Source: Escherichia phage T2
Sequence record: NC_054931.1
Direction: 5' to 3' (one strand)
Length of the DNA stretch: 64,000 nucleotides
The position numbers were made by a program, and so were the translations under genes. Below are positions 51,307 to 59,601 of this stretch, piece after piece. The number at the start of each line of letters is the position of its first letter. The stretch's first letter is position 1. Under the pieces are notes generated by a model. The model was not told the DNA's origin and did not search any database. It was given only the letters and a program-made list of their open reading frames with translations.

Positions 51307-52401
51307 ATGGCAATTGTTAAAGAAATAACTGCTGATTTAATTAAAAAGTCCGGTGAGACAATTTCAGCCGGACAGAGCACTAAATCAGAAGTAGGAATTA
51401 AAACATACACAGCCCAGTTTCCAACTGGGCGTGCTAGTGGTAATGACACTACAGGGGACTTCCAGGTAACAGATCTATATAAGAATGGATTATTATTTAC
51501 TGCATACAATATGTCATCTAGGGATTCTGGAAGTCTTAGATCGATGAGATCTAACTACTCTTCTTCATCTTCGAGTATTTTACGTACAGCCAGAAACACT
51601 ATTAGTAGTACAGTATCAAAACTATCAAATGGATTAATATCAAATAATAATTCAGGAACAATAAGTAAAGCTCCTGTCGCAAACATTCTTTTACCGAGAT
51701 CTAAATCTGATGTTGATACATCATCACATAGATTTAATGATGTTCAAGAAAGCCTTATCAGTAGAGGCGGAGGTACTGCTACTGGAGTGCTAAGTAATAT
51801 TGCTTCAACCGCAGTATTTGGGGCGTTGGAAAGTATAACACAAGGTATAATGGCTGATAATAATGAACAGATTTATACGACAGCCAGAAGTATGTATGGT
51901 GGTGCTGAAAATAGAACTAAAGTGTTTACATGGGATTTAACTCCACGTTCAACAGAAGATTTAATGGCTATTATTAATATCTATCAATATTTTAACTATT
52001 TTTCTTATGGTGAAACGGGTAAATCTCAATATGCTGCTGAAATAAAGGGGTATTTAGATGATTGGTATCGTTCTACGTTAATTGAACCTTTATCTCCGGA
52101 AGACGCAGCTAAAAATAAAACACTATTTGAGAAAATGACATCGAGTTTAACTAACGTTCTAGTAGTTTCAAACCCGACGGTTTGGATGGTGAAAAACTTT
52201 GGTGCAACATCTAAGTTTGATGGAAAAACGGAAATATTTGGTCCATGCCAAATACAGAGCATCAGATTTGATAAAACACCTAACGGTAACTTTAACGGAT
52301 TAGCTATTGCTCCAAATCTCCCTAGTACATTTACTCTCGAGATTACTATGAGAGAAATTATCACGTTAAACCGTGCTTCTTTATATGCGGGGACTTTTTA
52401 A
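51307..52401 (+). CDS. 48: baseplate-tail tube junction protein gp48
   Basis: 364 aa, matches T4 gp48. Confidence 0.95.
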   Translation: MAIVKEITADLIKKSGETISAGQSTKSEVGIKTYTAQFPTGRASGNDTTGDFQVTDLYKNGLLFTAYNMSSRDSGSLRSMRSNYSSSSSSILRTARNTISSTVSKLSNGLISNNNSGTISKAPVANILLPRSKSDVDTSSHRFNDVQESLISRGGGTATGVLSNIASTAVFGALESITQGIMADNNEQIYTTARSMYGGAENRTKVFTWDLTPRSTEDLMAIINIYQYFNYFSYGETGKSQYAAEIKGYLDDWYRSTLIEPLSPEDAAKNKTLFEKMTSSLTNVLVVSNPTVWMVKNFGATSKFDGKTEIFGPCQIQSIRFDKTPNGNFNGLAIAPNLPSTFTLEITMREIITLNRASLYAGTF

Positions 52402-53366
52402 TGTATTCTTTAGAGGAATTTAATAATCAAGCAATAAACGCAGATTTCCAACGTAATAATATGTTTAGCTGCGTTTTTGCAACAACTCCATCAACTAAAA
52501 GCTCTTCGTTGATAAGTTCAATTAGCAACTTTTCTTATAATAACTTGGGCCTAAATTCAGATTGGTTAGGATTAACTCAAGGTGATATTAATCAGGGAAT
52601 TACAACGCTAATTACAGCTGGCACACAAAAACTAATAAGAAAATCGGGGGTTAGTAAATATCTTATTGGTGCCATGAGTCAACGTACAGTTCAAAGTTTA
52701 TTAGGCTCATTTACAGTTGGTACATATTTAATTGACTTCTTTAACATGGCATATAACTCATCTGGATTGATGATATACTCTGTAAAAATGCCAGAGAATA
52801 GATTATCCTATGAAACTGATTGGAACTACAACTCTCCTAATATTCGTATAACTGGGAGAGAATTAGACCCTTTGGTTATTTCATTTAGAATGGATTCAGA
52901 ATCGTGTAATTACCGTGCAATGCAAGACTGGGTTAATGCTGTTCAAGACCCAGTAACTGGATTACGTGCTCTGCCACAAGATGTCGAGGCAGATATCCAG
53001 GTTAATCTTCATTCTCGTAATGGATTGCCTCATACTGCGGTGATGTTCACCGGATGTATTCCAGTGTCAGTGAGCGCTCCTGAGTTATCATATGATGGAG
53101 ATAACCAAATAACTACATTTGATGTTACTTTTGCGTATAGAGTCATGCAGGCTGGAGCAGTTGATAGGCAAGCTGCGCTTGAATGGCTTGAATCTGCTGC
53201 TATAAATGGTATTCAAAGCTCTTCTGGAAATAATGGAGGTGTTACTGAACTATCTAGTTCGCTTTCACGACTTAGTAGATTAGGAGGAACTGCAGGAAGC
53301 ATTTCAAACATTAATACTATGACAGGGATTGTCAATTCGCAGAGTAAAATATTAGGAGCAATATAA
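52401..53366 (+). CDS. 54: baseplate-tail tube initiator gp54
   Basis: 321 aa, matches T4 gp54. Confidence 0.95.
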   Translation: MYSLEEFNNQAINADFQRNNMFSCVFATTPSTKSSSLISSISNFSYNNLGLNSDWLGLTQGDINQGITTLITAGTQKLIRKSGVSKYLIGAMSQRTVQSLLGSFTVGTYLIDFFNMAYNSSGLMIYSVKMPENRLSYETDWNYNSPNIRITGRELDPLVISFRMDSESCNYRAMQDWVNAVQDPVTGLRALPQDVEADIQVNLHSRNGLPHTAVMFTGCIPVSVSAPELSYDGDNQITTFDVTFAYRVMQAGAVDRQAALEWLESAAINGIQSSSGNNGGVTELSSSLSRLSRLGGTAGSISNINTMTGIVNSQSKILGAI

Positions 53367-53371
53367 CAATG

Positions 53372-53400
53372 GGGACCTTTCGGTCCCCATATTTTTATTT
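53372..53400. terminator. hairpin GGGGACC-TTTC-GGTCCCC with T-run, between convergent gene 54 and alt region
   Basis: Perfect 7-bp stem followed by ATATTTTTATTT. Confidence 0.6.
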
Positions 53401-53685
53401 ACGGAATGAAATGAAAGCAGAAACTGAAGCAACTAAACTGTCTTCAATATAAACTTCAATTTTTACCGGAGCTTCTGACTCAAATTTACCTGTTACTACA
53501 CCCTGGAAAATGCTTTCAGTCTGTTCTGGCTTTGAAAAATTTTCAGAAGGAAAAATTCCGAACTTTTTATCTGTTCCAAAAATTTTAATAAATTCATCGT
53601 AAACCGCTTCGTTAAAAGCATTATCAGCAGGAATAACGCCTTCAACTACAAGTTCTTGACCTAAAAAGCGCAAAGAAGATTTCAT
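53395..53685 (-). CDS. hypothetical early protein, 96 aa (downstream of alt)
   Basis: Track ORF with its own early promoter. Confidence 0.6.
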   Translation of the reverse strand: MKSSLRFLGQELVVEGVIPADNAFNEAVYDEFIKIFGTDKKFGIFPSENFSKPEQTESIFQGVVTGKFESEAPVKIEVYIEDSLVASVSAFISFRK

Positions 53686-53716: not shown

Positions 53717-53746
53717 ATTATAACACAACATAAGGAACTTGTAAAC
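53717..53746 (-). promoter_or_regulatory. sigma70/T4 early-type promoter (-35 GTTTACA, 17-bp spacer, -10 TATAAT)
   Basis: Read on the minus strand: GTTTACAAGTTCCTTATGTTGTGTTATAAT, immediately upstream of the 96-aa ORF. Confidence 0.6.
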
Positions 53747-55803
53747 TACATTTTGAACTTTTTAGACATTCCGTTGATGTTAACCAAAGAAGCTAATATT
53801 TGAGAAACTTCGTTTTCCTCTTCTTTTGATTCTTCTACAAGGAATTGATTAAATCCAGCCATTGGACGAACTTCACCAGTTTCCATTAAATGGTCTCCAT
53901 CATATACTGATTCTTCTAATTGTTCAGAAGGAGGAACGATTGTACCTTCGATTAGATACTTGTTATAAGCAGTTTCTTTCATAAAGTACGTACTTACTTT
54001 ATTAATCTTCAGTAAAATTCCACGCGGTAGAATAACTTCAGCTTCTGATGGAAATCCTGATAAATGACCTGGAACGATAACTTTGATTCGCTCAGCTCCT
54101 TTAATTACCATACCCACGCTAGTTTCAGCATCTTCATTAGCATATGTAGAATGACTACCCATATGCATCAAATCTTCTGCATCAACGGAACCTTCTCCTT
54201 CTCCAGAAAATACTGCACCGGAATCATCTAGAGCCATATAGTTTTTACCATGCTCGCCAAAGATATTTGGTTTAAGTGATGTCGATACGAAGTTCTTGAA
54301 ATAGAACATTTTGTTTTCAATGTTGTGACGCAAAGTTTTAAAGGTAACTTCTTGTCCGCGATAAAGCGTAGTTCCTGGAGGAAGAACTGAACCTTTAGCG
54401 AATGCAGAATCCAACGTCTCGATGTGCTTAATAGCACGTTCCATATATTCTTCACGGGTAGAATCTGGTTTACCCAAAAGGAACGAGTTCATTTCAACAT
54501 ATGAATCTGCACAATAATCTTCAATTACATCAGACTCAGCCTGAGTCAGTCCTTTTGGAGTTACTTCAGTGCTTGCATATTCATATGCCTGGGCAGCAGA
54601 TTCATTAATCAATTTATAAATGCCATTCATGACAAATTGAATAATAACTGTCTTTTCATCTGGCGTAGCTTTAGAACCTTTAACCAAATCATTGATAATT
54701 TTCTTAATAACATCAAAGCTATTAGAAATATTAATATCAGCAAGATCACTTAAAATTTTATCAGTTTTATAATCAAAGAATTCTTTATTCTTTAAATATT
54801 CTTGAGAACCTTGATATGTTATATCGCTCTGTAACTTGATAGATGGATCACGTAAACGTGCATGGGCTAATGCAATATGATTTCGGAAGTTTTCTAGTTC
54901 ATAATCGCTAGATTTAAAACGAGAAGCACTTCTCATACCACCGATAGCTCCTTTGCTGAAGTTTGAACCAATCTGAATAACGCCAGAGTTCATTGGTCCT
55001 TCTGCTTTATATACCGGAACTTTAGATTCAAACTCTTGATATTTCTTGGCAGCGAAGCTATCACCCTGAAGTGAAGCATCGACAGTAGAATATTGAGCTT
55101 GTGCTGCTAATCGACGACTAATTTTAGTTTTCTGAATAACCGCTTGGTCAGTACGTTTATCATTTTCTAAAGCAATAGAAGCAGCAACAGCGACAGCTTT
55201 AGGAACAGCATCACCTGTTTTAACATCTACATAAACATCACCGACCTTCGATTCAACTTTTGCGAATAACTCAGTTGAAATAGGAGGTACACCTGGAATG
55301 TCTTCTAAATTGGCATTTTTACGGTAAACCATAATATATGCATACTTTTTATCATAGTCCCAGATTTCCTTTAAAAGAACATATCGACCTGCTCCTTTAG
55401 TACGTACTAAACGGTCAGCAATAACTTGCATTTGACGAGCTGCGCCATTTGTTTTACTTTTTAGTACGCGGAATAAGCATGCGTCGATTTTATACTGTTT
55501 CATTGTTTGAAGAGCAGTATCAAAAACAGCATTAATGACGCCAATTGGATTTCCACCCAAGTTTCTAAGCTTAACCAGCGATAATTTCTCGTTGACACCT
55601 ATCATTACGATATGCATCATTTTATCGCCTGGCTTAACGTTTTTATTTGTATCACCACCAGAGGTGTATGTACAAAATCTAAATCCAGGAAGCACGCTTT
55701 CTTCGCCGGCTTGAATAGCAAAAATTTGTGGTATTTTATGCTTAGGATTTAAGTTAACAACCGGCGCCGAAGCGCCGTCAAATAATTCTGTAATAAGTTC
55801 CAT
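53746..55803 (-). CDS. Alt-like ADP-ribosyltransferase, paralog B
   Basis: 685 aa; N-terminus MELITELFDG (packaging/cleavage signal); R-S-E ART motifs (LYRGQ, STSL, EAEVILPRG) in C-terminal domain. Confidence 0.85.
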   Translation of the reverse strand: MELITELFDGASAPVVNLNPKHKIPQIFAIQAGEESVLPGFRFCTYTSGGDTNKNVKPGDKMMHIVMIGVNEKLSLVKLRNLGGNPIGVINAVFDTALQTMKQYKIDACLFRVLKSKTNGAARQMQVIADRLVRTKGAGRYVLLKEIWDYDKKYAYIMVYRKNANLEDIPGVPPISTELFAKVESKVGDVYVDVKTGDAVPKAVAVAASIALENDKRTDQAVIQKTKISRRLAAQAQYSTVDASLQGDSFAAKKYQEFESKVPVYKAEGPMNSGVIQIGSNFSKGAIGGMRSASRFKSSDYELENFRNHIALAHARLRDPSIKLQSDITYQGSQEYLKNKEFFDYKTDKILSDLADINISNSFDVIKKIINDLVKGSKATPDEKTVIIQFVMNGIYKLINESAAQAYEYASTEVTPKGLTQAESDVIEDYCADSYVEMNSFLLGKPDSTREEYMERAIKHIETLDSAFAKGSVLPPGTTLYRGQEVTFKTLRHNIENKMFYFKNFVSTSLKPNIFGEHGKNYMALDDSGAVFSGEGEGSVDAEDLMHMGSHSTYANEDAETSVGMVIKGAERIKVIVPGHLSGFPSEAEVILPRGILLKINKVSTYFMKETAYNKYLIEGTIVPPSEQLEESVYDGDHLMETGEVRPMAGFNQFLVEESKEEENEVSQILASLVNINGMSKKFKM

Positions 55804-55806
55804 GAT

Positions 55807-57903
55807 TTATCCTTGAACGAACTTGTAAGGCATGTTTGTAATATCTATGCAAGACGCAATAATTCCGAGAGATGATTCTACTTTCTGTTTAACATTTGAT
55901 GAAACAAATGATGCAAAGTCAACTCTGTCTTCTATTTCAATATCACCTGTCATTGCAACTACTTCGCCGGTTTCCATTAAACGGTCTCCGTCATAGATTA
56001 CCGATTCGGTGAGTTCTTCTGTGGTCATAACTTCAGCTTGAATGAGTTTTGTATTATTAGACGTGGTTCCGTCATTATTAGAAGCATCAGTTATTTTATT
56101 AACTTTGACCATCAATCCGCGCGGTAGAATAACTTCAGCTTCTGTTGCTATTCCGAGACTTCCTGGATATACAACATTAACTTTATGAGCTCCATCAATT
56201 GCCCATCCTATTTGAACTTTAACGTATTCAGGATTTTCTTTATACGCTCTTATTTCGTTTGGATTAATAGTTATTCCTTCTTCATTTTTATCAACTGTTA
56301 ATTCATTGCGAGCTTCTGGTTCTAAAAGACCAATACCAGCATGTGTAATTCCAAAACGTCCAAAAATGATAGGAGTTAAAGAAGTAGATACAAAATTTCT
56401 GAAATAGAACACTTTATTTTTAACTAGCGCTTCGTATATAGGAGCAGTCATACTTTGAGCACGATAAACTGTAATGCCTTCCGGTATGCGGTCACCATTT
56501 TCAAAAGCTGAATCTAAATTATTTATAGCAGATTCAATTTCTTTTTCACTCATTACATCATATCGTTCTGGATTGTAACGACCTAAAAGAAGATTATTAA
56601 TGTCTGTATATCCTGAACCACAATACTCTCTAATACCGCGCTTTTGTGATGGTGTATATTTAGAACCATCACAAGCAATAGTAATATCAATCATTGGACC
56701 AGCACCAATTCCAGAAAAACTATAAATCATTCGTTTGAGGAATTTAGTTTTTGCTGCATTCCAGGCATTTTTAGTTATTTCTCCCCAGACTTCATCTGGC
56801 TGCCCTTTACGAGTTTTATTATGTTTATCAAGCCAATTATCTTTATATTCTTCAAAGAATTGATTGACAGCTGCCGCGTATTTCTCTAAACATTTTATTG
56901 AAGTAGTTGGTTCATTTTTAATCGCGTTAAAAATTACATCTTTAATTTTTTCAGAAACTTCATCAACCTCACTTTTTGAAAAGAATTTATAGTCATAGTG
57001 AAGTTCATTCGCAGTTCCTTCGGCAATAATTTTTGCTGCCTTTGTTTTAGAAGCTAATGAATTAATTCCAATTTTCATTTCTTCTGCTTCGGGAATTAAA
57101 GGAGCGGTAGCAGGCTTATTGAAATTAGCTGCGGTAGATTCATACTTCTGGAATAATTCACTTTCAAATCTAGAAGATTCCAATGATTGACTTTGCGCAA
57201 TTGCTCTACGGGAAATTTTAACTTTAACGATTACAGCTTGGTCAGTACGTTTATCATTTTCTTGTGCAATAGATGCTGCAATTGCCTCGTTTTTAGTTAC
57301 TTGAGCTCCAGTATCTTTATTGATATAAACATCACCGACCTTCGATTCAACTTTAGTAAAGAGCTCGGTACTAATTTCCGGAACTCCTGGAATGTCTTCT
57401 AGTGATACATTTTTGCGATGTATAAGAATATATGCATACTTTTTATCATAATCCCAGAGTTCCTTAAGAAGGACGTATCTGCCACCTGAACGACTACGGA
57501 TAAGTCTATCAGCAATAACTTGAATTTGTCGAGCTTGACCAGCAGTTTTAGACTTAAGAATACGAAGCATACAAGCATCAATTTTATACTGACGCATTGT
57601 TTGCATTGCAACAGTAAAAACTGAATTGATATAATTAATTGGGCTTGGACCAAGACCTTTTAATTTAGCAATTGAACCTTTAGCAGTTAATGTAAAAGGA
57701 ACAATATGCATCATTTTATCGCCCATTTTTAAATCGCGATTAGTATCACCTCCAGATGTATAGGTACATAAACGAAAGCCTGGTTGTTCAATTGCATCAT
57801 CAACATGAACTGAAAAAATTTGTGGTATTTTCTTCTTTGGATTTAAGTTTGTAATCGGAAGAGTAGTATCTTCGTCAAATAATTCTGTAATGAGTTCCAT
57901 CAT
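55807..57903 (-). CDS. alt: Alt-like ADP-ribosyltransferase, paralog A (probable start at second Met, 57900)
   Basis: 697-698 aa; N-terminus (M)MELITELFDEDTT; ART motifs VYRAQ, STSL, EAEVILPRG. Confidence 0.85.
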   Translation of the reverse strand: MMELITELFDEDTTLPITNLNPKKKIPQIFSVHVDDAIEQPGFRLCTYTSGGDTNRDLKMGDKMMHIVPFTLTAKGSIAKLKGLGPSPINYINSVFTVAMQTMRQYKIDACMLRILKSKTAGQARQIQVIADRLIRSRSGGRYVLLKELWDYDKKYAYILIHRKNVSLEDIPGVPEISTELFTKVESKVGDVYINKDTGAQVTKNEAIAASIAQENDKRTDQAVIVKVKISRRAIAQSQSLESSRFESELFQKYESTAANFNKPATAPLIPEAEEMKIGINSLASKTKAAKIIAEGTANELHYDYKFFSKSEVDEVSEKIKDVIFNAIKNEPTTSIKCLEKYAAAVNQFFEEYKDNWLDKHNKTRKGQPDEVWGEITKNAWNAAKTKFLKRMIYSFSGIGAGPMIDITIACDGSKYTPSQKRGIREYCGSGYTDINNLLLGRYNPERYDVMSEKEIESAINNLDSAFENGDRIPEGITVYRAQSMTAPIYEALVKNKVFYFRNFVSTSLTPIIFGRFGITHAGIGLLEPEARNELTVDKNEEGITINPNEIRAYKENPEYVKVQIGWAIDGAHKVNVVYPGSLGIATEAEVILPRGLMVKVNKITDASNNDGTTSNNTKLIQAEVMTTEELTESVIYDGDRLMETGEVVAMTGDIEIEDRVDFASFVSSNVKQKVESSLGIIASCIDITNMPYKFVQG

Positions 57904-57923: not shown

Positions 57924-57931
57924 TATTTATA
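57924..57931 (-). promoter_or_regulatory. late promoter TATAAATA on minus strand (alt)
   Basis: Reverse complement TATTTATA ~20 bp upstream of alt start, just after hairpin GGCCCGAAGGCC (57940-57951). Confidence 0.5.
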
Positions 57932-57952
57932 AAATTAAAGGCCCGAAGGCCT

Positions 57953-58141
57953 TTAATAATCTATAGGTAAGAGAGTACGATATATTTCAAACTTTGGACC
58001 TTTTTCATAAGCATCAAAAGTTTCTGTGAATTTATTATAAGCATATGCATCTATAAATTCAATCATGATTTGTGATACAGAAGTAGAAACATCTCCACCT
58101 TCTTTTTGAGCTACAACAATTGTTTCTAAGTAAGCTTTCAT
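57953..58141 (-). CDS. hypothetical small protein, 62 aa
   Basis: Track ORF between gene 30 and alt. Confidence 0.5.
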   Translation of the reverse strand: MKAYLETIVVAQKEGGDVSTSVSQIMIEFIDAYAYNKFTETFDAYEKGPKFEIYRTLLPIDY

Positions 58142-59601
58142 AGACCAGTTACCTCATGAAAATCGCCAAATACATCTTCGAACGTATTAGCTTTAGTTTT
58201 ATCTTCGCGTAAACGAATCGCAATCGGAAGAAATAATTTAACGTAATCAGTGCGGCCATCAGATTTTAACCAACCGTTGCATTCGCACTCTAGAATTTTT
58301 CCAATATAATAATTTTGGTTTTCCATAATGCGAGTACGGTCAAGTTCATGCGATTTTACACCGGCTTTATCTTTTAAGCCTGAACCAGCATTTACCTTAA
58401 TTTTTCCGCACTCTGACTCAAGAATAAATCCACCTGCTTTAGTAGGGTCTTTACGGTGAGGATAAATTCCTACAATTTTTAAATCAACATCAATTACTTC
58501 TTTAAATTTATAGAGATTTTTTGAACGAGCATTTTCCCATAATCCATCGATATTTTTGAGAATAATACCTTCAAGACCTTGGTCAATATACTTTTTATAA
58601 ATTACCTTAGCTTCATCTAGGTTATTTACTACCTGGTTTTCAATTAAAATTACTTTATCATATCCCGATGTCATTTGTTCTAGTTTAGAAAAACGTACAT
58701 CATACTTCAAACGAAATGCAGGAAGACCGTATATTTCTACCAACGGGACATAATCCCAGACCTGAAACTTCATGCATTGAGCTTCTTTTTCAGAAATGGT
58801 TCCCTTTAAAGATTTATTGGCGATGCCATTAGATGCAGTACGTGATTCAGCTACTTCTGTGAAGTCTTTAACTTTACTGTTTTCAGGATGAGCATCAAAA
58901 AGAAAATCTAGGCCTTCTGGCTCCTTTTTAACTTGCTCATGGTATACCAATTCGCCATCAATTAACACGCCTTCTGGATGAATCTGGCGGGCTTCAGCGG
59001 TCATTTTGATTAATTCTTCCTTAAGAAGATCTAATCCTAGATATTCATTACCGGCTCGTGATAAAAGACGAACATCATCTAATTCATCACCTCTGACTTC
59101 GGCAAAGCACCGAGCCCCATCAGCTTTTAACTGGGCAAAAGCTGGAAATTTGATATTCTTATTAATGCCTTTTTCATCATAAGAACTTGCAAGCATTTGA
59201 GGTTGTTCAGGAATTAAACCTGGCCAAACTTTGTTTGCAATAGATACTGAAGCACCACATTCAAGGTCTCGCATCATCACTCGACGCAAAACTTCAACAT
59301 CATCTTTTTTACCATCGGTGATATATCCAGTTAATTCCTCAATTGCTGCATTTCCAGTCAATTTCCGAGTAGCTAATGTGAATTCAATGAAGTCAAGCAT
59401 ATCGATAAGAGTCAACATTCCAAAACTCTGGGTAGCAATACCAGGTTTAGGCCATTTCTTGATATAATACTGCAACCCACGAGAATAAGTCAGACGATAT
59501 ACTCGTTTAAGCAATTCATTATCTTTATTCTTTTCAAGAATTGCTTGCTTCTGCTTAGTTGAACCAATAGATGCTATTTCGTTCAGAATTTTAAGAATCA
59601 T
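58138..59601 (-). CDS. 30: ATP-dependent DNA ligase gp30
   Basis: 487 aa; adenylation motif KADGAR; matches T4 DNA ligase. Confidence 0.95.
   Translation of the reverse strand: MILKILNEIASIGSTKQKQAILEKNKDNELLKRVYRLTYSRGLQYYIKKWPKPGIATQSFGMLTLIDMLDFIEFTLATRKLTGNAAIEELTGYITDGKKDDVEVLRRVMMRDLECGASVSIANKVWPGLIPEQPQMLASSYDEKGINKNIKFPAFAQLKADGARCFAEVRGDELDDVRLLSRAGNEYLGLDLLKEELIKMTAEARQIHPEGVLIDGELVYHEQVKKEPEGLDFLFDAHPENSKVKDFTEVAESRTASNGIANKSLKGTISEKEAQCMKFQVWDYVPLVEIYGLPAFRLKYDVRFSKLEQMTSGYDKVILIENQVVNNLDEAKVIYKKYIDQGLEGIILKNIDGLWENARSKNLYKFKEVIDVDLKIVGIYPHRKDPTKAGGFILESECGKIKVNAGSGLKDKAGVKSHELDRTRIMENQNYYIGKILECECNGWLKSDGRTDYVKLFLPIAIRLREDKTKANTFEDVFGDFHEVTGL

Follow-up and report, generated by a model that had tools for sequence, protein, structure and literature searches.

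A second Alt-type ADP-ribosyltransferase gene next to alt in Escherichia phage T2 and its deleted remnant in phage T4

Two Alt-type genes in tandem

Escherichia phage T2 carries two adjacent genes for Alt-type ADP-ribosyltransferases, which we analysed within a stretch of 64,000 nucleotides of the phage genome (NC_054931.1; called the window here). Both genes lie on the minus strand. The first, alt (55807–57900, 697 residues), is the positional counterpart of T4 alt. The second, alt2 (also called alt.-2; 53746–55803, 685 residues), was assigned to the same enzyme type from its open reading frame (ORF), BLASTP, Pfam and PHROG matches and a structure model. The two-gene pair is the normal, already annotated state of the T-even phages, and T4 is the exception through deletion. 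From the sequence comparisons, alt2 is an old paralogue of alt and would most simply be part of an ancestral two-gene alt locus of Tequatrovirus. Taking the whole chain of steps together, we consider it probable that Alt2 is a second head-packaged, gp21-processed and injected arginine-specific ADP-ribosyltransferase with its own targets.

Alt is the textbook case of a phage enzyme that is injected along with the DNA and reprogrammes the host, and nearly all work on it has been done in T4. T4 Alt is packaged in the head and acts as an NAD+:arginine mono-ADP-ribosyltransferase on host proteins, among them RNA polymerase alpha (at Arg265). Alt2 resembles T4 Alt in its family assignments (phrog_802, PF26846 and PF03496), its length class, the MELITE propeptide, the aligned sites for the prohead protease gp21 and the catalytic R/STS/ExE residues. 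The two genes also agree in their place between gene 54 and alt.1, the neighbour of gene 30, in strand and in late-promoter context. However, Alt2 is a paralogue of T4 Alt and not its orthologue: it is only 41–43% identical to T4 and T2 Alt, has a phenylalanine (F584) at turn-1 of the substrate-recognition (ARTT) loop and differs in the insertion that separates STS from ExE. Compared with T4 Alt, the identity of 43% falls to 8–20% at residues 240–410, short of the high identity along the whole protein that an orthologue would show.

The T2 proteins Alt and Alt2 are 41% identical overall (BLASTP, E = 2e-161), and chance resemblance is therefore excluded. Together with the Pfam and PHROG matches, the same value rules out mis-called ORFs. 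The Alt-like family phrog_802 covers the full length of both proteins (Alt2 residues 1–685, E 7e-255). The ADPrib_exo_Tox family, PF03496, was matched by Alt2 at 71.4 bits (8e-20) and by Alt at 129.1 bits (2e-37), with a gathering cutoff of 23.4. PF26846 (Tevenvirinae_ADPRT) also matches both, and the combination of PF26846 and PF03496 is on record for Alt2-type proteins. A search of NCBIfam gave zero matches, and no solved Alt structure was found by sequence search.

A preliminary description of the region, made from the letters alone, had read it as two full-length, catalytically intact and divergent Alt-type genes with an N-terminal packaging and cleavage signal, and this structural reading holds at the level of sequence. 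The ORF translations of both genes begin with the same nine residues, MELITELFD. The identity over the N-terminal part, put earlier at about 70% for the first ~220 residues, was measured as 67.3–67.5% across the first 220–240 residues. Beyond it the proteins diverge as had been described, with 8–22% identity at residues 240–420 and 32–50% in the catalytic core, where the value drops to 8–15% between the STS and ExE motifs. The catalytic motifs quoted in that description are present in both proteins and survive alignment: LYRGQ (R482), STSL (507) and EAEVILPRG (587) in Alt2, and VYRAQ (R480), STSL (505) and EAEVILPRG (587) in T2 Alt, whose catalytic residues are S505-T-S507 and E587-A-E589. In an alignment of 20 sequences spanning the Alt family, R482, S507, S509, E587 and E589 are invariant. 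The arginine and ExE of Alt2 also fall in the same alignment columns as the catalytic residues of R-S-E ADP-ribosyltransferases with solved structures. T4 itself has no full-length second gene, and on this point too the preliminary description stands.

The novelty that the preliminary description had implied for the second copy did not stand up, as both genes are already annotated and the paralogues have been remarked on in print. Both genes are present in T2, T6, RB32 and ~400 further phage records. The RefSeq record of RB32 lists alt and alt.-2, each as 'Alt-like RNA polymerase ADP-ribosyltransferase', and a 2025 record of T2 annotates both genes as in RB32. In the BASEL phages Bas44 and Bas36 the genes are named 'Alt' and 'Alt2'. 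The T2 alt gene had been deposited earlier as X69893. Nolan et al. (2006; PMC1524935) described T4 alt.-1/alt.-2 and ORFs of RB49 and 44RR as paralogous alt duplications, the duplicate of 44RR being full-length. [quoted passage not shown] The present analysis adds to this record the origin of the T4 remnant, the selection acting on Alt2, both cleavage sites, the chimeras, the exchange of a module between T2 and T4 Alt, and the difference in the ARTT loop.

Domain anatomy, processing sites and specificity of Alt2

The AlphaFold model of full-length Alt2 (pLDDT 75, pTM 0.59) has four parts: an α/β N-domain (~12–225), a helical region (~240–470), an ADP-ribosyltransferase (ART) β-core (~470–625) and a disordered tail (629–685). 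The last helices of the helical region belong to the ART fold in the model. A second model, of residues 1–420 (pLDDT 76.5), agrees on the N-domain and the helical region. On the minus strand of the window, the N-terminal α/β domain (residues 1–240, PF26846) is encoded at 55084–55803; it contains the MELITE propeptide and shares 67% identity with the N-domain of Alt. The variable helical middle domain comprises residues 241–415 (54559–55083). The ART catalytic domain comprises residues 416–625 (53929–54558), with R482, S507-T-S509 and the ARTT loop F584-P-S-E587-A-E589. Residues 632–685 (53749–53909) are the predicted C-terminal propeptide, which follows the gp21-type motif LEE-631 and is disordered in the model. 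T2 Alt has the corresponding parts, an N-domain (residues 1–238), a variable helical region and an ART domain (residues ~378–627).

Using Foldseek, the ART domain of Alt2 was matched to Vis, C3, CDTa, iota-like toxins and VIP2 with E values of 2e-7 to 1e-4. The TM-scores, normalised to the single-domain targets, were 0.55–0.67, and the block-mean pLDDT of the ART region was ~58–92. Vis, C3bot, iota-like/CDTa, VIP2 and Certhrax share with Alt2 the catalytic fold, the R/STS/[EQ]xE residues and the aromatic-x-x-E-x-E pattern of the ARTT loop. They differ from it in that they are secreted bacterial toxins acting on eukaryotic targets, are only 14–20% identical to Alt2, and have no counterpart of the Alt N-domain, the helical middle domain or the gp21 propeptides.

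T4 Alt is cut by gp21 at ITE-6 and LTE-619, which removes 6 N-terminal and 63 C-terminal residues (Ali et al. 2017, PMC5694885; see also PMC9026906). In T2 Alt the gp21 cleavage motifs are ITE-6 and LTE-632. The N-terminus of Alt2, MELITE followed by LFD, is identical to that of T4 and T2 Alt and carries the motif ITE-6. At the other end of Alt2, LEE-631 followed by SVYDGD stands in the column aligned with LTE-619 of T4. The pattern at this C-terminal site, [L/I/M]-x-E followed by S/A, is kept in 20 of 20 aligned family members. The predicted mature Alt2 has a mass of ~69 kDa.

A profile search with the N-domain against 1.84 billion representatives returned only 73 clusters, most of which measure 598–712 residues, the full length of Alt. 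Ten N-domain matches, chosen mostly for their atypical length, were scanned with Pfam. PF03496 was present in six, no domain was recognised in three and the tenth was a low-complexity artefact; of the eight matches of atypical length, five had PF03496 and three no recognised domain. Another recognised effector domain behind the N-domain was seen in none of these ten. Searching BFVD by Foldseek with the model of residues 1–420 gave weak matches at E 1e-5 to 2e-3. Over ~170–230 aligned columns the model resembled large proteins that are uncharacterised and come from unrelated myoviruses (Erwinia phiEa2809, Vibrio VP-1 and Kuja, Agrobacterium Atu_ph07), one of them a zeta-toxin fusion. A deaminase-domain protein gave a weaker match over ~440 columns. 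Hidden Markov model searches do not confirm the BFVD matches. We therefore dropped the idea that the N-domain is a general delivery module for many effector types, which has no sequence-level support despite the Foldseek hint.

In the R-S-E clade, ExE, as opposed to QxE, is associated with specificity for arginine, a rule established in work on the C3 and iota toxins, and by analogy Alt2 is predicted from its ExE motif to be arginine-specific. The canonical pattern of the ARTT loop in the same toxins is aromatic-x-x-E-x-E. The loop reads F584-P-S-E-A-E in Alt2, I-A-T-E-A-E in T2 Alt and P-S-N-E-M-E in T4 Alt; the turn-1 residue is thus Phe, Ile and Pro, respectively, and the relatives of Alt2 keep the aromatic pattern. 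The ART domain of Alt2 also has a variable insertion of ~40 residues between STS and ExE. The middle domain of Alt2 had no match in T2 or T4 Alt by tblastn (E<=0.001), and its only other relatives are the JS10-type Alt proteins, with 48% identity. Because the middle domain, the STS-to-ExE insertion and the ARTT loop all differ, and each is conserved within its lineage, different targets are predicted for Alt and Alt2. Different host substrates had been suggested in the preliminary description, and the differences in the ARTT loop and middle domain strengthen that suggestion.

That Alt sequence variants can differ functionally is indicated by a preprint, in which T4 Alt, and not Bas37 Alt, restored plating on a Mokosh type I strain (10.1101/2025.11.20.689424). 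The experiment says nothing about Alt2.

The closest full-length relative of Alt2 outside its orthologues is the Alt of JS10/JS98-type phages (P0012, 707 residues), with 48% identity overall and an N-domain that is more diverged (25–72% by segment). Among the matches listed, these phages have one Alt-type match per record, which may be their sole Alt-type gene. A side observation concerns a metagenomic T4-like contig (Logan SRR23924977; L010:2242–6423), which carries a diverged pair made of an Alt of 697 residues and an Alt2-like protein of 694 residues. The latter is 74% identical to T2 Alt2, with 88–95% in the N-domain and 54–63% in the middle domain.

The alt and alt2 genes are arranged as an operon. 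The start codon of alt2 lies 3 nucleotides past the alt stop, and its AAGGA ribosome-binding site overlaps the end of alt. A pattern search found a T4-type late promoter, TATAAATA, at 57924–57931 on the minus strand, 20 nucleotides upstream of alt. It is the sole late-promoter motif between alt.1 and the alt start, and it carries the annotation 'T2 late promoter' in X69893. The same search found no late-promoter motif directly 5' of alt2. The element at 57924–57931 probably drives both genes, and a late alt–alt2 operon whose two products would enter the prohead alike is the simplest reading of the arrangement.

We propose that alt and alt2 would be co-transcribed late from TATAAATA upstream of alt, and that both precursors would enter the prohead core through their common N-terminal signal and N-domain. 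There, gp21 would trim from Alt2 the six N-terminal residues at ITE-6 and the C-terminal propeptide of ~54 residues at LEE-631, giving the mature form of ~69 kDa. Mature Alt2 would then be ejected with the DNA into the next host, where it would use NAD+ to mono-ADP-ribosylate arginines in host proteins, its targets being at least partly unlike those of Alt.

The strongest competing explanation is that Alt2 is active without being packaged, working late in the producing cell much as ModA and ModB work in the infected one, or that it is packaged and hits the targets of Alt, merely raising the dose. T4 ModA and ModB resemble Alt2 in being phage-encoded R-S-E ADP-ribosyltransferases that serve host takeover. 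They are ~200 residues long, are expressed early and remain unpackaged, and their genes lie elsewhere on the genome. Packaging of Alt2 is read from motifs, late expression would put the enzyme in the producing cell, and the catalytic cores of Alt and Alt2 are 32–50% identical and both ExE; all of this would suit such an explanation. However, the N-terminal propeptide is identical to that of Alt, both gp21 motifs are kept in aligned positions, and the N-domain is especially constrained, with a ratio of nonsynonymous to synonymous substitution rates (dN/dS) of 0.01–0.05; these observations argue for packaging. A shared target set is opposed by the middle domain, unrelated to that of Alt by tblastn, and by the different ARTT turn-1 residue and STS-to-ExE insertion. 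A conserved, different specificity region is not needed for dosage. We regard this explanation as unlikely, and prefer that of an injected Alt2 with its own targets.

The T4 remnant, selection and exchange at the alt locus

In T4, alt (682 residues) is followed by alt.-1 (61 residues), alt.-2 (67 residues) and alt.-3. The short ORFs alt.-1 and alt.-2 (NP_049810 and NP_049809; NC_000866, 123065–123450) contain no catalytic domain. The stretch that holds them runs collinear with T2 alt2, whose first 347 nucleotides it matches at 95.7% identity, compared with 67% for alt. Two lesions separate it from an intact gene. The first is a single-base deletion that shortens an A5 run to A4 (55640–55644 in T2, minus strand, from the T2/T4 alignment) and splits the remnant into alt.-1 and alt.-2. 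The second is an internal deletion of 1,699 bp that ends on either side in a copy of the 9-bp direct repeat CTAAAAAGT. In T2 the first copy, at the left end of the deletion, is at 55456–55464 and the second, at the right end, at 53757–53765, both on the minus strand; T4 keeps one copy. Past the deletion, T4 is again in register with T2 through the last 20 nucleotides of alt2, the alt.-3 promoter and alt.-3. The PHROGs built from the T4 alt.-1 and alt.-2 fragments also match Alt2 better than Alt.

T4 thus carries a deleted and frameshifted alt2, and alt.-1/alt.-2 is DNA orthologous to alt2. The RefSeq notes describe T4 alt.-1/alt.-2 as an 'old duplication of the first part of gene alt' and RB32 alt.-2 (NC_008515, 119320–121377) as an 'apparent insertion'. 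The T2/T4 alignment, with its frameshift and repeat-flanked deletion, rules out both a partial duplication in T4 and an insertion in RB32. The database notes read the polarity of the change backwards.

To gauge how common the two states are, a 91-nucleotide probe over the T4 junction was used. It matched in one piece in 90 phage records, natural isolates included, and as two separate halves in ~380. As the intact state is found in the majority of records, the two-gene locus is most simply ancestral. By tblastn, the 685-residue Alt2 is present at >=95% identity (at least 95%) in 395 phage records, and its middle domain at >=90% identity in 400 records.

The alt gene itself is mosaic. We compared T2 alt (55807–57900) with T4 alt (L002:2501–4549), the products of which are 71–72% identical overall. 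Residues 1–240 are ~100% identical, with a synonymous divergence (dS) of 0.10, and the tail is 88% identical with a dS of 0.13. Between them, identity falls to 15–38% at residues 260–420 and 52–68% in most of the catalytic core, and dS there is 1.1–1.4. The low dS at the ends and the high dS in the middle and catalytic module show that the module was exchanged between old alleles and did not diverge in place. Alt2 is found beside either type of Alt: Bas36 has Alt2 together with an Alt of 683 residues (the T4-type length), and in YUEEL01 the Alt that accompanies Alt2 has a middle domain matching the T2 type at just 32%, the level also seen for T4. In four database proteins (P0003–P0006), which are chimeras, an Alt2 body follows an Alt-type N-terminus, and the crossovers lie near residues 60, 120, 190 and 240. 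In one contig (L011:5001–7055) such a chimera is the sole gene between alt.1 and alt.-3, as would be expected if the two N-domains had recombined unequally. The chimeras, and this locus in particular, show that one N-domain can stand in for the other and that it can be the body of Alt2 that is kept.

This mosaicism could also mean that the alt locus is a recombination-driven effector cassette in which alt2 serves mainly as a reservoir of middle and ART modules for exchange with alt. The dS contrast within alt, the spread of the crossovers, the single-chimera locus and the pairing of Alt2 with either Alt type all fit such a role. Yet the Alt2 module is nearly invariant and so is not being diversified, and at the sequence level the N-domain was seen joined only to ART domains or to regions in which no domain was recognised, and in no case to an effector of another recognised type. 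Exchange is moreover compatible with an injected Alt2, and a function for Alt2 would still be needed. As the main role of alt2, we give a reservoir very little credence.

Alt2 is under strong purifying selection. Pairwise Nei–Gojobori comparisons of alt2 with its orthologues in RB32, Bas44 and two IMG/VR contigs gave dN/dS of 0.03–0.05 at dS of 0.11–0.23, with similar values across the N-domain, middle domain, catalytic domain and tail. Against the distant orthologue in the metagenomic contig described above (74% protein identity), dN/dS is 0.13. Between alt and alt2, synonymous divergence is saturated (dS ~1.3); the duplication is therefore old and the duplicate has long been kept. The low dN/dS, the invariant catalytic residues and ~400 intact copies rule out alt2 as a decaying pseudogene. 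Least probable of all is thus a redundant or decaying duplicate without its own function that is heading for T4-style loss: T4 and 89 other records have lost alt2 by frameshift and deletion, and truncated forms of 415–624 residues exist in the protein database (P0007, P0008 and P0010), but the constraint extends to every region of the gene, the catalytic triad does not vary, the intact copies are 95–99% identical in the middle domain, the divergence from alt implies long retention, and the single-gene chimeric loci retain the body of Alt2 in place of that of Alt.

Around the pair, a region of 4.9 kb matches several Escherichia phage T2 records at 100% identity, and RB32, RB33, T6 and many further Tequatrovirus phages at 97–98%. 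Downstream of alt2 lies alt.-3 (53395–53685, minus strand; 96 residues, DUF5498/PF17602, from the ORF list and Pfam). It has its own strong sigma-70-like promoter at 53717–53745 on the minus strand (TTTACA, a 17-nucleotide spacer and TATAAT with TG; 11/12 matches). A bidirectional terminator 3' of alt.-3, at 53369–53390, separates it from gene 54. With its own promoter and terminator, alt.-3 marks the end of the alt–alt2 unit. T4 can escape the CmdTAC defence through mutations that lengthen Alt.-3 at its C-terminus (PMC11618068). The stems of the terminator hairpin are identical in T2 and T4, and the loop is inverted, reading GAAA in T2 and TTTC in T4 on the same strand. Beyond it the ORF list gives gp54 (52401–53366) and gp48 (51307–52401), both on the plus strand.

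On the other side, the alt ORF reaches an upstream ATG at 57903, from which it would encode 698 residues (MMELIT). It has 697 residues if counted from the second ATG, which is the alt start in RefSeq, in T4 Alt and in the newer T2 annotation. The upstream neighbour of alt is alt.1 (57953–58141, minus strand; 62 residues), which has a match to PF24647 ('Phage blade protein', 7.5e-29). Between alt.1 and the alt late promoter, a hairpin at ~57936–57953 ends the alt.1 unit. The gene for the DNA ligase gp30 (58138–59601, minus strand; ORF list) adjoins alt.1.

Alt2 as a candidate injected effector

Several points weigh against an injected Alt2 with its own targets. The structure models are of moderate confidence (pLDDT 75–76, pTM 0.52–0.59). 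The packaging motifs could be mere inheritance from the duplication. The divergence of substrates is argued from sequence only, and the targets of Alt2 may overlap with those of Alt, such as RNA polymerase alpha. T4 and the 89 other records do without alt2, which is therefore dispensable at least on laboratory hosts. A second exact copy of TATAAATA lies inside alt, at 56520–56527 on the minus strand, ~720 nucleotides upstream of alt2; it could give alt2 additional or independent late expression, or be a chance match in AT-rich DNA. The literature search found no published report of an activity, a target, detection in the virion or a phenotype for a second Alt, no proteomic, enzymatic, genetic or transcript data on it, and no paper on the Alt of T2 or T6.

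A broader reading, which we put forward more tentatively, is that Alt2 might act after injection as an effector on a set of host targets of its own, possibly against a bacterial defence system, and that the N-domain and propeptides might form a delivery frame for middle and ART modules that recombination exchanges between alleles and between the tandem genes.

The gene pair is already annotated and commented on in print, and Alt2 is a well-defined and easily testable candidate effector. T4 Alt has been linked to the evasion of MazEF and Mokosh, and it is thus reasonable to ask by experiment which targets Alt2 has. A strongly conserved second Alt-type enzyme is found in most of the T4-like coliphages sequenced, and T4, which lacks it, under-represents the set of injected enzymes of the group. 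If Alt2 is indeed injected, the T4-based picture of the injected T-even proteins would miss a widespread enzyme, one that T4 has lost by deletion.

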